Origin: Salinivirgaceae bacterium
GTDB lineage: Bacteria; Bacteroidota; Bacteroidia; Bacteroidales; SZUA-534
Reading direction: 5' to 3'
NCBI GenBank assembly: GCA_024405635.1
Contig: JAKSOL010000006.1
Span: 46,136 to 110,135, forward strand
DNA length: 64,000 nt
Shown here: piece after piece, positions 2,024 through 17,549 of the stretch
How positions within the stretch are numbered: the stretch's first letter is position 1
Layout: each line of letters begins with the position of its first letter
Program-made: the position numbers and the translations under genes
The notes under the pieces: generated by a model
Databases searched by the model: none
What the model saw: only the letters and a program-made list of their open reading frames with translations
Told to the model about the DNA's origin: nothing

Positions 2024-2542
2024 TTAGTACGTTTTTACATTAGCAATACTTTCGGGAGATGCCGTCTGTAAATCGACAGGCTGCGTTATTTCTATTTTGA
2101 AGTTTTTGCAAACAACATCAAAGTACCAAAGCGCGAGTTTGGGCCGAAAATCGTACATTAAGTGTTGCATGATATCCTTTACAGCCAAACTCTTTTTCCC
2201 CTTGACGAAGCAATAAAACCGAGTGATATGCAGGTTGTGGTACATCTGCATATTATAATTAGCCAATTTCATTTTTCCGTTAGGAGTTACAGCGTTTTTG
2301 TTAATAGCTGTAAGGTCGTTTTGGTATTCTGAAGTGTTACTTAAATAATCTATTTGCCCCATTACCGACAAAAGAAATTCCTTTTCAGAACGCTGCTCTA
2401 CAAGAAACTCTCGACTATCATTCCAAAGGTTATGAAGAAAGTCCATATATTCAGAATTCTTCATATTTTCTTGAATAATCATCTTGGCCAACGACTCTGG
2501 CAACAATTTTGTTAAGTATTCTTCTTCAGTGTATTTTGCCAT
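2024..2542 (-). CDS. Hypothetical protein (172 aa), translationally coupled to the upstream helicase
   Basis: Its ATG shares base 2542 with the helicase stop (TAATG). No recognisable motif. Confidence 0.7.
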   Translation of the reverse strand: MAKYTEEEYLTKLLPESLAKMIIQENMKNSEYMDFLHNLWNDSREFLVEQRSEKEFLLSVMGQIDYLSNTSEYQNDLTAINKNAVTPNGKMKLANYNMQMYHNLHITRFYCFVKGKKSLAVKDIMQHLMYDFRPKLALWYFDVVCKNFKIEITQPVDLQTASPESIANVKTY

Positions 2543-4803
2543 TATTCTTTGTCACTTTTTATTGTATTGCACTTTCTGCAAAGTAATTGTAGGTTTTCTG
2601 GAACCGACTTACCTCCGTTGTTCATAGCCTTTATGTGATCAACTTGGAACACGCTTTTAACGCGAGATGTTCTTCCGCAAATTGCGCACTTGTATTGGCC
2701 ATTTGGCTGTTTGGCTGCAAAGTACACACCTTCTCTCAATCGTTTTGCGTACATTGGATCTACTTCCTCAATTTGCTTAAGAGGAAGTTCGTCAAGATTG
2801 CGCTTTCCGTATTTTACATTGTTGTCCAATTGGTCGTAAATGTCGGGACGGCGAATTTTAAGTATCTCAACATCAACTTGTTTTAGGAAATAAGCCTTGC
2901 GTCCAAAGAACAATTTTATAATTTCTTCATCTTGGCTATCCCAAAGATTATCAAGATATTCGTCTTGTGCCCTTGCGCCCATATCTTGGTCGTAGATGTG
3001 TTGGGCTATTTTCTTTATGTCGAGGCGACTTCTGTCAACTTGCTCAAACTTGTAGAATTTAGGCGCATTGTCCTTTTGGCAGAAGTATCTGATAATGTTA
3101 ATGACATCTGACCTACGATATGGTGGAATCATGTAGTTATTGAAGTAGCTCTCGAAGCATCTTGCCTCCAATTCGTCAAGTATTTCATCGGTAGGATGCT
3201 CGACATCGGTAAGGTCGTATTCTTCAAGAAGATAAGGCATATCGTTCAGCATTGTGGCGTATGCTTCCATTGAGTTGTCGTAAACAATTACTTGACACTG
3301 CACATCGCCCTCGTTTTCTGTGGTGTATTGGAATACGTACATTCCCACAGGAATTCTCTGCATAAAGTCAACCTTTTCCAATTCTGAGGTATCAACCTGA
3401 CTGTCAAGTATCTTGGCAAACTCCTCGATTTTTGAAATTGCAATTGAACGAATGTTCTTAGTAAGATTATTGTATTCTGTTTCTCTGAATTCGTTGTCAC
3501 CATTGAATATAGTTTCAGGGTTAACCCACATAATGTTTTCGTTCCAATCGTCAACAAACGATACAATGTAAGCCTCTTCAGTACCACCAGCAGCAGGACC
3601 TCTTAGTGCGCGGCCTATCATTTGGGTCATTAAGATTGTGGAAGTTGTGGGGCGAGCCAAGAATACGGTTTTGGTTTGAGGAAGATCGACACCCTCGGTA
3701 AGTATATTTACGTTTACCAACACTTTCAGCGTTCCGTCTTGATATTCCTTTATCTTACGTTCGTTTTCTTCTTTTGAAATTGATGCTCCTGTTGCTGAAT
3801 CTTTTATCGATGATACAACATAATCGGCAATTCGTCCATTTTCGTTAAAAAGCTTGCAGAGCGATATTGCGTGTATTATGTTGGTTGCAAAAACGATTGT
3901 TGGTCCGTATAGTTCAGCATCTTCAAAATATTTGTTAACGATAAACCTATTACGGTTTGCATTCCCGGCCATTTTATCTGCTATGCTGTCTGGAAGAACA
4001 TCTAGTTGCATAATGTTGTTTATCTCGTCGAGACTGAGGTCGGTAAATTTTTCTTCGGTATAAAATATTTTCTGAATTGGTTTCGATAGTATTCGTCGGT
4101 TAATCAAATCTTGTAGGCTTACCGAGTACGCAATTCCAAGTTCGTTGTTAACTGCTATTCCGTCGCTGTTTACGCCGTCGGTAAAAATCTTGGCAAGCAA
4201 ACCCTGCTCGCTTTCCGATGTTCGGGTTGGTGTGGCTGTAAGACCAAGTATTTTAACATCCTCAACCTTTTCCCTAACGTATTGTATTACTCGGCGATAC
4301 GTTTTGGCGGTTGAGTGATGCGCCTCGTCAACAACAAGAAACAATCGGCTCTCGTTTTCAAGCCAAACATCAAGGCGGTCAAGATTGCGGCCTATGCTAT
4401 CTTTGCTTATTACCAACAAATTGTCGGTAGGTTCAATGTGGATTGTTTTGTCGTGGTGTGGTGCTCCTGAAACAACACGATAAGTGAAGTTTGGCACGCT
4501 TGGAAGGTTTTCGAGATAGGCAAACTTACGGAACGATTCCAGTGCTTGGTCCAAAAGCATGGTTCGGTGGGCAAGCCAGAGCACCTTAATTTTCTTGTCA
4601 ATAGCATTTTTGAGCAACCAAGTTGACGCTGTGTAGGTTTTACCTCCTCCAGTTGGCAGAACAACAAGTGTGCTGTATTTGTTGTTTTTGTTTATCACAC
4701 CAAGGTTTCTGAATGCTTCAACCTGATGTTGATATGGAGTACGCGGATTAGATGATTCTATGCGACTGATAACTCCAAATGATGTTGTTTCAACAGTTTG
4801 CAT
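2542..4803 (-). CDS. SF2 DEAH/ResIII-type helicase with a C-terminal HNH endonuclease
   Basis: Walker A LPTGGGKT, motif II VVDEAHH, motif III LGLTATP, motif V VNILTEGVDLP, motif VI QMIGRALRG. The C-terminus reads CAIC...QVDHIKAMNNGGKSVPENLQLLCRKCN (HNH with two CxxC). Confidence 0.9.
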   Translation of the reverse strand: MQTVETTSFGVISRIESSNPRTPYQHQVEAFRNLGVINKNNKYSTLVVLPTGGGKTYTASTWLLKNAIDKKIKVLWLAHRTMLLDQALESFRKFAYLENLPSVPNFTYRVVSGAPHHDKTIHIEPTDNLLVISKDSIGRNLDRLDVWLENESRLFLVVDEAHHSTAKTYRRVIQYVREKVEDVKILGLTATPTRTSESEQGLLAKIFTDGVNSDGIAVNNELGIAYSVSLQDLINRRILSKPIQKIFYTEEKFTDLSLDEINNIMQLDVLPDSIADKMAGNANRNRFIVNKYFEDAELYGPTIVFATNIIHAISLCKLFNENGRIADYVVSSIKDSATGASISKEENERKIKEYQDGTLKVLVNVNILTEGVDLPQTKTVFLARPTTSTILMTQMIGRALRGPAAGGTEEAYIVSFVDDWNENIMWVNPETIFNGDNEFRETEYNNLTKNIRSIAISKIEEFAKILDSQVDTSELEKVDFMQRIPVGMYVFQYTTENEGDVQCQVIVYDNSMEAYATMLNDMPYLLEEYDLTDVEHPTDEILDELEARCFESYFNNYMIPPYRRSDVINIIRYFCQKDNAPKFYKFEQVDRSRLDIKKIAQHIYDQDMGARAQDEYLDNLWDSQDEEIIKLFFGRKAYFLKQVDVEILKIRRPDIYDQLDNNVKYGKRNLDELPLKQIEEVDPMYAKRLREGVYFAAKQPNGQYKCAICGRTSRVKSVFQVDHIKAMNNGGKSVPENLQLLCRKCNTIKSDKE

Positions 4804-4860
4804 TTTAATAAATGTTTAGAGGTTTAATTAAATTTTAAGCAAACTATCAATCACATACGG

Positions 4861-5056
4861 ACAAAAAGAGAGGCGCGAACCGTTCTACTCACATTCACGA
4901 GGAGCCTCGGATGAACCTCGCTTACCAGTATAGAAAGTTCACGCCTATCGGCGGTTCTGTCATACTGGTAATAGGTCAGCGTAAGCTTCCCGTGAATTTG
5001 CTTTTATCCGATTATTCTAAACAATCAGTTTCCGAGGCTTTTTGTTTGAATGTGAA
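4861..5056 (-). promoter_or_regulatory. Structured 5' leader of the helicase operon; candidate attenuator or cis-regulatory RNA
   Basis: Perfect inverted pairs at 4889-4897/5047-5055, 4903-4911/5031-5039 and 4922-4931/4962-4971. An alternative stem (4871-4887 with 4931-4946) is followed on the sense strand by CUCUUUUU. Confidence 0.55.
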
Positions 5057-5094
5057 TAATAGCTAATGCGTTGTTATGTAATATGTTATATTTC

Positions 5095-5121
5095 TTTTAA
5101 AAGTTCTCTTTTCTGTTTTTT
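5095..5121. repeat. 27-bp direct repeat, copy 1
   Basis: TTTTAAAAGTTCTCTTTTCTGTTTTTT is identical to 5545-5571. Both copies are preceded by ATATGTTAT. Confidence 0.9.
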
Positions 5122-5178
5122 AACTAATTTATTTCTGTTTATAGTAAATTTATAACAAATACTTCAAAATCTAAACTT

Positions 5179-5367
5179 TCAATGCCTTTTTATGTCACCA
5201 ACACCATGCGTTTTCATTTGTTGGTGAAACACATCCTGTCTCACAAGAAAATCCTCTAAAGTCTTTTTGTCTGGGATTTGCAACATGTACGTTGACACAA
5301 AAAGTTTGTTGTCCATACCTGCCAATGCATATTCCACCATCTTCTTGCTTTTGTGGCATTTATATTG
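5179..5367 (-). pseudogene. C-terminal remnant of a YhcG/DUF1016 (PD-(D/E)XK nuclease) family gene
   Basis: The frame reads ...CHKSKKMVEYALAGMDNKLFVSTYMLQIPDKKTLEDFL..., which I recognise as the DUF1016 C-terminal signature. A TAA at 5370-5368 lies just upstream and the rest of the gene is absent. Confidence 0.65.
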
Positions 5368-5634: not shown

Positions 5635-5907
5635 TTATTCCCCAGCTATATAAACAACCGAATCCTCCGCCACTGTATGTTGGCACAGATTTGCTTGGGA
5701 AAACATGCCCTCAAAGCTAAGATCTTCGTCTAACAGAGGCCAATGAATGCCCGAATAGGAAAGAATGAAATTTTCTCGTTGAGACTGTGTGGCATTGCTT
5801 AAAGTTGGCCATTGAGAAAACAGATAACTAGCCACCTTGCCATCTTTTGTTTCTGCATACACCGCGCTATCATCCACCCAAACTCTCTTTATTGTCATCA
5901 TAGGCAT
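5635..5907 (-). CDS. DUF2442-family putative antitoxin
   Basis: Motif FPTL/WPTL..AT..QR.NF.LS..GIHWP.LDEDLS. It lies downstream of a DUF4160 gene with a TAATG overlap. Confidence 0.85.
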   Translation of the reverse strand: MPMMTIKRVWVDDSAVYAETKDGKVASYLFSQWPTLSNATQSQRENFILSYSGIHWPLLDEDLSFEGMFSQANLCQHTVAEDSVVYIAGE

Positions 5908-6140
5908 TACTTTTTAAAATAATTTTTCCACCTATCAATAATAACATCTCTATTTTCTTCAATAACAGATTCTATCAGTTTCAACTCATGAATCTTAAAC
6001 CCATGATTATATATCTGTTCAATTTTTTCAACATTGTATTTTGCCTCTTGATTATCCTTAATCACATGCACATGAATAGGCTCATGATCATCAGAATAAA
6101 ACATAAATCGAAAACCGAAAAAAATAAAAAGTGTAGGCAT
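5907..6140 (-). CDS. DUF4160-family putative toxin
   Basis: MPTL...GFRFMFYSDDHEPIHVHV...EAK...W..YF pattern; 77 aa. Confidence 0.85.
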   Translation of the reverse strand: MPTLFIFFGFRFMFYSDDHEPIHVHVIKDNQEAKYNVEKIEQIYNHGFKIHELKLIESVIEENRDVIIDRWKNYFKK

Positions 6141-17370: not shown

Positions 17371-17457
17371 TGGTGCCCAGAACAAGACTCGAACTTGCAC
17401 GAACTAATGTTCACCACCCCCTCAAAGTGGCGCGTCTACCAATTTCGCCATCTGGGC
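17371..17457 (-). tRNA. tRNA-Leu(GAG)
   Basis: Acceptor GCCCAGA...TCTGGGC-A-CCA; anticodon arm CCACT-TTGAGGG-GGTGG; long variable arm; T-loop GTTCGAGTC. Confidence 0.95.
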
Positions 17458-17465
17458 TTATGATG

Positions 17466-17549
17466 TGCCTAAAACAGGACTCGAACCTGCACGTTCTTGC
17501 AAACGCTAGTCCCTGAAACTAGTGCGTCTACCTATTCCGCCATTTAGGC
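17466..17549 (-). tRNA. tRNA-Leu(CAG)
   Basis: Acceptor GCCTAAA...TTTAGGC-A; anticodon arm CTAGT-TTCAGGG-ACTAG; long variable arm; CCA not fully encoded. Confidence 0.95.

Follow-up and report, generated by a model that had tools for sequence, protein, structure and literature searches.

The window analysed here is a 64,000-nt stretch of a contig from a Salinivirgaceae bacterium of the Bacteroidales. The element that concerns us lies in a 376-nt gap (4804-5179), 5' of a helicase-HNH gene on the minus strand. Downstream of that gene, the operon continues with a 172-aa ORF, an M48-TerB protein and another ORF, and PADLOC returned type IV REase-like and PbeA-like matches for it. Just 5' of the element, a 53-aa fragment on the minus strand (5179-5340) matches the C-terminal end of a YhcG PDDEXK nuclease. 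Between the element and the adk/hpt/valS genes is a DUF4160/DUF2442 pair (5635-6140, minus strand; 77 aa and 90 aa), in which the first stop abuts the second start codon, resembling a small toxin-antitoxin-like module. Further along the window, two neighbouring tRNA-Leu genes with anticodons GAG and CAG occupy 17371-17549 on the minus strand. A tRNA/tmRNA scan of the region of the element returned nothing.

A first-pass annotation had placed a two-state RNA leader at 4861-5056, and the pairings that it proposed are all present in the window copy. In the nested fold A, TCACATTCA (4889-4897), AGCCTCGGA (4903-4911) and TTACCAGTAT (4922-4931) are the exact reverse complements of 5047-5055, 5031-5039 and 4962-4971, respectively, and the AGAA/TTCT and CGCC-GATA-GGCG segments sit within the last of these repeats, as had been stated. 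In fold B, on the minus strand, AGGCGUGAAC-U-UUCUA (4946-4931) pairs with UAGAA-CG-GUUCGCGCCU (4887-4871) through a duplex of -22.5 kcal/mol that contains a single U.G wobble. The CUCUUUUU tract (4870-4863) comes next, with 60 nt to the ATG at 4803. When a 216-nt stretch was folded on the minus strand, it had a z-score of -4.7, and none of 200 shuffled sequences folded as well. Fold A and fold B also recur with compensatory changes in 74 parsed homologues, and the pairings are not due to chance. The annotated element is thus real, although its boundaries were drawn too small: the sense strand is the window minus strand from 5069 to about 4843, the conserved RNA starts at 5069, and in canonical members the RNA continues through an extra hairpin up to the start codon. 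The parts of the window copy, listed from upstream to downstream on the sense strand, are as follows.

5070-5088: moderately conserved AT-rich, promoter-like stretch, 1-19 nt upstream of the 5' block
5056-5069, minus strand: conserved 5' block GCAUUAGCUAUUAU, the probable RNA 5' tail and the block behind the search pattern
5047-5055, minus strand: P1 5' strand UCACAUUCA, partner 4889-4897
5040-5046, minus strand: joiner J1/2, AACAAAA, A-rich in 133 of 137 pattern hits
5032-5039, minus strand: P2 5' strand AGCCUCGG, partner 4903-4910
5008-5028, minus strand: P3 hairpin CUGAUUGUU-UAG-AAUAAUCGG, from minimum free energy (MFE) prediction, found family-wide with variable shape
4998-4989: conserved fold C strand AUUCACGG, whose last GG is the first two bases of P4 and which can pair with 4892-4901
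4974-4991, minus strand: P4 hairpin, GG-GA-AGC UUAC GCU-GA-CC
4962-4971, minus strand: P5 5' strand UUACCAGUAU, partner 4922-4931
4942-4953, minus strand: P6 remnant of 4 bp, CGCC-GAUA-GGCG
4931-4946, minus strand: switch strand, comprising the P6 3' strand and UUCUA and forming the fold B 5' strand, partner 4871-4887
4922-4931, minus strand: P5 3' strand AUACUGGUAA, exact complement of 4962-4971
4916-4921, minus strand: Palt 5' strand GCGAGG, partner 4897-4902 (CCUCGU)
4889-4910, minus strand: unbroken 3' strand P2b-Paltb-P1b, CCGAGGCU CCUCG UGAAUGUGA
4867-4886, minus strand: degenerate P7 hairpin, AGAACGG UUCGCG CCUCUCU, whose loop and flanks form the fold B 3' strand
4863-4870, minus strand: U-rich tract CUCUUUUU, directly after fold B
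4843-4854, minus strand: left arm GUGAUUGAUAGU of the start-codon hairpin H, whose right arm ACUAUCAAUCAC is missing in the window
2542-4803, minus strand: first cargo gene, encoding a 753-aa SF2 helicase with a C-terminal HNH nuclease (Pfam ResIII/DEAD/Helicase_C/HNH)

BLAST-type searches identified a second copy in the source genome, on contig C7, that is 74% identical, has the canonical form and lies upstream of Tsp45I RM genes. The same type of search found copies in 14 of 61 related genomes, with one to three in each. We collected the wider family from a species-representative genome collection using a 22-nt degenerate pattern from the 5' end. The matches listed comprise more than 118 loci, with at least 96 distinct full-length copies that form 63 clusters at <85% identity. 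All hosts among the matches listed are uncultured MAGs labelled Bacteroidales, 'Paludibacteraceae' or 'Salinivirgaceae', from rumen, horse and other guts. In Rfam 15, the best match of the window copy scored 23 bits against a threshold of 79 and the matched families are unrelated, while the canonical copy L041 reached 16 bits against 51; scans of window and canonical copies to an E-value of 10 gave noise. No description of the family was present in the full-text literature searched, and no conserved short ORF that might encode a leader peptide was seen by eye in the family copies. Carriage by phages or plasmids was rejected, as a pattern scan of IMG/VR viral contigs and a blastn search of PLSDB plasmids returned no family match.

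To quantify the conservation of pairing, we scored 74 parsed copies in registers that we anchored ourselves, the register of P2, P6 and P7 being picked from 3-7 options per sequence. The values per helix are given as the share of alignment cells that are paired and the number of positions with changes on both sides.

P1: 99.8% of cells paired, both-side changes at 3 of 9 positions
P2: 98.0% of cells paired, both-side changes at 6 of 8 positions
Palt (GCGGGG/CCCCG): 99.7% of cells paired, both-side changes at 1 of 5 positions, with 81 G.U and 0 A.C
P6: 84.5% of cells paired, both-side changes at 4 of 9 positions, some copies probably being mis-registered by the anchoring
P7: 94.4% of cells paired, both-side changes at 3 of 7 positions, a soft register in that slid controls reach up to 85%
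Fold B: 95.3% of cells paired, both-side changes at 4 of 9 positions, slid controls reaching at most 62.5%

All six helices beat every one of 500 partner permutations, and P1, P2, Palt and fold B also exceed every slid register. Summed over the 74 copies, G.U outnumbers A.C by 416 to 25 on the sense strand, which identifies the RNA as the window minus strand. P5 is hypervariable in sequence yet always paired and fixed in position (mean 9.7 bp, compared with 6.5 bp in shuffled sequences). Since P2, Palt and P1 have their 3' strands in one uninterrupted run, Palt would either stack between P1 and P2 as a pseudoknot or form an alternative hairpin; its window copy has an A-U pair where other members show G-C or G.U. 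For fold C, the longest helix averages 8.0 bp, against 5.5 bp in shuffles. This helix joins RUUCACGG, where P4 begins, to CCGUGAAY of Palt-b/P1b, and RUUCA covaries with the UGAAY of P1b. In 47 of the 74 members, the 5' tail GCAUUAGCU is complementary at 8-9 of 9 positions to AGUUGAUGC, which immediately precedes P6 and is deleted in the window copy. We also considered that the 5' block might pair with the left arm of H to close the structure, but dropped this idea as the L030 subfamily, viewed by eye, did not support it.

In all subfamilies, the fold B 3' strand is followed by a U-rich tract of 9-12 nt, so the reported adjacency of fold B and a U-rich tract is a family property. Most members carry hairpin H, whose stem averages 11 bp, with 108 G.U in all, and whose end is usually 0-5 nt away from the ATG. 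The loop of H often holds an in-frame ATG, for example GAATGCAAAA, so that automatic gene calls give the methyltransferases about 6-7 N-terminal residues too many (MQKLSI..., MHKLNT...). Conservation on the upstream side of the 5' block ends about 19 nt out. A sigma-70-type promoter scan of the window copy and two canonical copies gave no more matches than in shuffles, and no Bacteroidetes -33/-7 promoter was found upstream by eye.

Position relative to the downstream gene is conserved as well. In all 19 loci that we mapped in detail, the element is on the same strand as the next gene and its 5' end lies 235-275 nt before the start codon, while the upstream neighbours are unrelated housekeeping genes. 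More broadly, 119 of 136 pattern hits have a same-strand downstream ORF, which in most cases starts at a distance of 220-280 nt from the 5' end; the hits lacking one are mostly at locus ends. We tallied 91 distinct first cargo genes. More than half of them encode EcoRI-family adenine methyltransferases (n = 52). Also encoded are 815-835-aa proteins with no Pfam match in which an NPPY motif was seen by eye (n = 6; probable methyltransferase fusions), MmeI-like type IIG enzymes (n = 5), N6_Mtase fusion proteins (n = 2), Tsp45I restriction enzymes (n = 2), Dcm (n = 2), a D12 methylase (n = 1), an N6/N4 methylase (n = 1) and the helicase-HNH protein of the window (n = 1). The surface-glycan genes encode sulfatase-family membrane enzymes (n = 6), GT2 (n = 4) and GT25 (n = 1) glycosyltransferases, acyltransferase-3 proteins (n = 3), a DUF2334 deacetylase-like protein (n = 1) and GtrA (n = 1).

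Because this cargo consists of varied accessory modification genes, the leader is specific neither to nucleases nor to defence. It had first been read as a device that could keep a toxic nuclease operon silent until infection. The tally speaks against a device specific to such operons, with 52 of 91 distinct cargos being EcoRI-family methyltransferases and about 15 surface-glycan enzymes, and nothing ties the switch to phage infection. A separate antitoxin-like ncRNA, suggested as the alternative, is unlikely given that the same leader precedes unrelated cargo. The mixture of DNA methyltransferases, nucleases, glycosyltransferases and acyltransferases does not point to any ligand.

The cargo genes are horizontally exchanged. 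Pairwise comparison showed leader and cargo moving together into different flanks (L029 versus L031 and L021 versus L022). Between L025 and L039, both the flanks and the leader are the same and the cargo differs, with homology breaking a few nucleotides before the ATG, at the start-codon palindrome. Truncated forms also occur, in which only the first 25-60 nt of the leader precede the ATG of another gene (L045, L107, L155, L097 and, with two in tandem, L138). In L138, two copies of the first ~30 nt of the leader (4715 and 6164, plus strand) are 1.45 kb apart, each with an ATG within 10-15 nt; judging by eye from their N-terminal sequences, the genes encode an AlbA_2/Schlafen-like (450 aa) and a RhuM-like (283 aa) protein. 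The truncated forms suggest that the 5' block carries the promoter-proximal part of the leader, and the block alone may act as a portable promoter with a short leader.

Further traces of exchange were observed around the leader. In L045, L107 and L155, its first 40-45 nt stand directly before a full-length protein that is YhcG-like by eye from its N-terminal sequence; together with the YhcG fragment in the window, such remnants at the leader suggest earlier cassette turnover at the site. GC-rich palindromic repeats follow right after the cargo stop in L025 (+2715 to +3125 from the leader 5' end), L039 (+1100 to +1470), L029 and L031. Their units, GCGCGCTGAAAGCGCAAC... and CCCAACG...CGTTGGG, could be REP/MITE-like and delimit the exchanged cassette on its 3' side. 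At L055 (6264, plus strand), an insertion of ~80 nt separates P1a from J1/2. As the inserted sequence is in part a palindrome (TGCCTTAGGGCAGA...), it may stem from a small mobile element that entered the leader.

The transcription data consist of assembled RNA contigs without direction or true 5' or 3' ends. In one metatranscriptome, contigs cover 4744-5039 at a depth of 9-19, and depth is zero at 5040-5187 and over most of the gene. In four other RNA runs, depth is limited to the L041 leader and its conserved ends, and some metatranscriptome contigs extend beyond the 5' block by more than 130 nt on the upstream side. The leader is therefore transcribed, and it exceeds its flanks in abundance or stability. 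The original reading had been made to hinge on a transcript crossing the region, and directionless metatranscriptome contigs do span it and cross the U-run.

Taken together, these results support a cis-located, sense-strand leader with two mutually exclusive pairings on a shared strand that is conserved family-wide, much as the first-pass annotation described; covariation across the 74 copies in anchored registers shows that both pairings have been selectively kept across a large family. It is likely that we are dealing with an uncatalogued family of cis-acting, multi-state leader RNAs of ~260 nt, made up of a ~210-nt structured core and the start-codon hairpin. With the same degree of confidence, the stretch in the window is probably a degenerate member of this family and the 5' leader of the helicase-HNH operon on the minus strand. 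The leader fronts accessory, horizontally exchanged modification genes.

The core of the putative switch is a set of nine bases, GGYGYGRRC, that P6 and fold B share. Both helices exceed slid and permuted controls, and as they use the same bases they are mutually exclusive. The partner strand of fold B spans the P7 loop, together with one flanking base on the 5' arm and two on the 3' arm, and fold B is extended by CUAU:AUAG. In canonical copies, P6 (-13 to -16 kcal/mol) and P7 (-7.4 to -8.5 kcal/mol) stand against fold B (-20 to -23 kcal/mol), so the trade is roughly balanced locally. A divergent subfamily without the AGAAAGG arm has a continuous 14-bp fold B of -17.5 kcal/mol right before U10 and a local hairpin of only -4 to -5 kcal/mol. 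Fold B is thus a stable, long-range helix (-17 to -23 kcal/mol) that abuts the U-rich tract throughout. When only nested structures are allowed, the P1-P6 fold has an advantage of about 21 kcal/mol over a fold B state, which implies that fold B needs a pseudoknot with P1, P2 and P5, or kinetic or trans-acting help. A terminator scan scored none in the window copy or in two canonical copies; the canonical P7 was likewise unscored.

The family core folds into the nested helices P1-P6, and the P6 3' strand and CUAU can alternatively pair with the sequence just after P1 to give fold B, ending exactly at the U-rich tract. We propose that the balance between P6/P7 and fold B would set the amount of transcription into the cargo, and the start-codon hairpin might add translational gating. 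The trigger may be a small molecule, a protein, an RNA or folding kinetics alone. We slightly favour the polarity in which fold B and the U-tract would form a terminator and the P6/P7 fold the read-through state, considering that fold B is strong, abuts a U-rich tract of 9-11 nt in all subfamilies and can zip from the CUAU:AUAG toehold while the RNA emerges, and that P7 is weak.

Under the opposite polarity, which we hold to be a real but doubtful possibility, the leader would be a three-structure attenuator with P7 (AGAAAGG-loop-CCUUUCU plus UUUU) as terminator, fold B as antiterminator and the P6 5' strand as anti-antiterminator. The layout fits attenuators of the 1:2 / 2:3 / 3:4 type and the balance of P6 plus P7 against fold B agrees with it, while P7 has compensatory changes at 3 of 7 positions. 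An RNA contig from a close relative of the fold-B-biased window copy runs 117 nt past the U-run and into the gene, which suits this polarity better. A zipper-type attenuator is described as setting a long-range antiterminator against a local terminator (PMC13401043). Yet P7 is a weak hairpin (-7 to -8 kcal/mol, with A-U base pairs at its foot), is followed by only 3-4 U and was not scored by the terminator scan, and in one subfamily the local hairpin has just -4 to -5 kcal/mol while fold B is strong and abuts U10. Moreover, fold B ends at the U-rich tract, which antiterminators normally do not.

The window copy departs from this design in a manner that the initial reading overlooked. Compared with its nearest relatives (e.g., L066 and L136), it has lost GUUGAUGCUCGCG, that is, the P6 5' strand together with the partner of the 5' tail; in the alignment, the canonical 9-bp 5' strand of P6, GCUCGCACC, and the preceding GUUGAUG are missing. 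P7 has two internal mismatches, one of which is the C at 4870 that is U in related strains in four runs. The start-codon hairpin has no right arm in this copy, which shows only a 7-bp, chance-like stem there, and fold B has gained pairs to reach 15 bp. The resulting energies are -6.0 kcal/mol for P6, -2.9 kcal/mol for P7 and -22.5 kcal/mol for fold B. As the short P6 form is also present in contigs of three other runs, it represents a real lineage and not an assembly error. With P6 mostly lost, P7 broken, H missing and fold B strengthened, the window copy is probably fixed in the fold B state and no longer switches, whichever the polarity. So the two-state design is borne out for the family, whereas this particular copy may have ceased to switch. 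Transcription would always be terminated if fold B is the terminator and always read through if the polarity is reversed. Under the reversed polarity, the window copy would be locked ON through weakened P6 and P7 and a strengthened fold B, and we regard this, too, as a doubtful possibility. The window copy and the canonical C7 copy in the same genome thus form a natural 'locked' mutant and control from which polarity could be read.

One alternative to a switch is that the RNA adopts a single compact, pseudoknotted fold, in which Palt, the fold B toehold and the pairing of the 5' tail with J5/6 would all be tertiary contacts. Such an RNA might offer proteins a binding platform, aid stability or processing, act as a ribozyme, or be a stand-alone small RNA whose end is the U-tract. 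The continuous 3' strand of P2b, Palt-b and P1b would suit this, as would the A-rich J1/2 and a pyrimidine-rich linker, which are positioned as in triplex pseudoknots. P1 and P5 are of similar length, which would bring both tails beside the P6 arm, and RNA-contig depth is higher on the leader than on the gene. We nevertheless consider a single fold improbable, because P6 and fold B use the same nine bases and cannot coexist, and fold C and P1 also share a strand. The fixed distance before the start codon and the movement of the leader with, or in front of, its cargo argue for action in cis.

Still less credible, to the point of being very unlikely, is that the repeats matter as DNA, be it as an inverton, as a MITE or as a site of cassette recombination. 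The ends, GCATTAGCTATTATTCAC and GTGATTGATAGTnnATGC, do resemble terminal inverted repeats, the cargo classes are typical of contingency genes, the cargo exchange between L025 and L039 falls exactly on the start-codon palindrome, and truncated 5' modules stand before other genes, twice in tandem in L138. Against this, the internal helices covary with a sense-strand excess of 416 G.U over 25 A.C, which is unexpected for DNA sites, and both orientation and distance to the start codon are fixed. No integrase or invertase was seen by eye in the ORF maps of ~±6 kb around the 19 mapped loci, for which some of the proteins were Pfam-scanned. An inverton had come to mind from the phase-variable-like cargo and the inverted-repeat ends, and was rejected as the interior is inverted in 0 of 137 copies and strand-changing joints were not seen in DNA runs. 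The same-strand ORF in 119 of 136 hits and the internal covariation argue against a MITE or REP-like repeat. Integron attC-type sites were discarded given single copies 5' of the cargo, the lack of an integrase in the 19 ORF maps inspected by eye, and the sense-strand G.U excess indicative of RNA.

Attenuators and riboswitch expression platforms, such as the trp leader and the pbuE adenine ON-switch, work through mutually exclusive terminator and antiterminator helices. The family shares with them the location in a 5' leader, a strand with two partners, a helix that abuts a U-rich tract, energy-balanced alternatives and a complex multi-helix domain upstream. Unlike them, it has no known leader peptide, ligand or binding protein, and its candidate terminator is a long-range helix enclosing ~55 nt. 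At least three of its strands serve more than one helix (P6b, P1b/Palt-b and perhaps the 5' tail), and its cargo consists of swappable mobile genes, not one pathway. The zipper-type attenuator cATT of pLS20-family conjugation operons resembles the family in concept: it is described as a long, structured leader that precedes a horizontally mobile operon and has no known ligand, and in it complementary segments on either side of a central stem compete with a terminator (PMC13401043). However, cATT belongs to Gram-positive plasmids, spans 456 nt with one long imperfect stem and bears no sequence relation to the family, in which the long-range helix itself ends at the U-tract.

The controller (C) proteins of type II RM systems are DNA-binding and act on operators (PMC2377437, PMC2275141). 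Like C-protein loops, the family leader precedes RM genes, where post-transfer timing and dosage matter, but there is no C gene, the conserved feature is an RNA structure, and non-RM genes are fronted as well. Bacteroidales invertible promoters resemble the family in their flanking inverted repeats, their length of 200-250 bp and the RM and surface-structure genes downstream (PMC7641763). They differ from it in that none of 137 family copies is inverted and the interior covaries as RNA.

RM genes are known to be controlled by C proteins, methyltransferase autoregulation and antisense RNAs, and translation initiation and regulation in the phylum of the Bacteroidales differ from those of model bacteria. 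The size of the leader and its network of competing helices make it a strong candidate for an orphan riboswitch or attenuator. Its hosts are abundant, uncultured Bacteroidales of the rumen and gut, and as the leader marks sites of cargo exchange, it is useful for finding new defence genes. It is conceivable, if rather unlikely, that the family is a class of trans-sensing RNA switches, either a riboswitch for an unknown metabolite or alarmone or the target of a host antitermination factor, that offers acquired RM and surface-modification genes a portable 'socket' under one common signal. If true, this would be the first case of contingency and defence cassettes under a global control based on RNA structure. 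A covarying leader common to dozens of RM, type IV nuclease and glycan-modifying cassettes would in itself represent a new layer of control on mobile defence and surface-variation genes.
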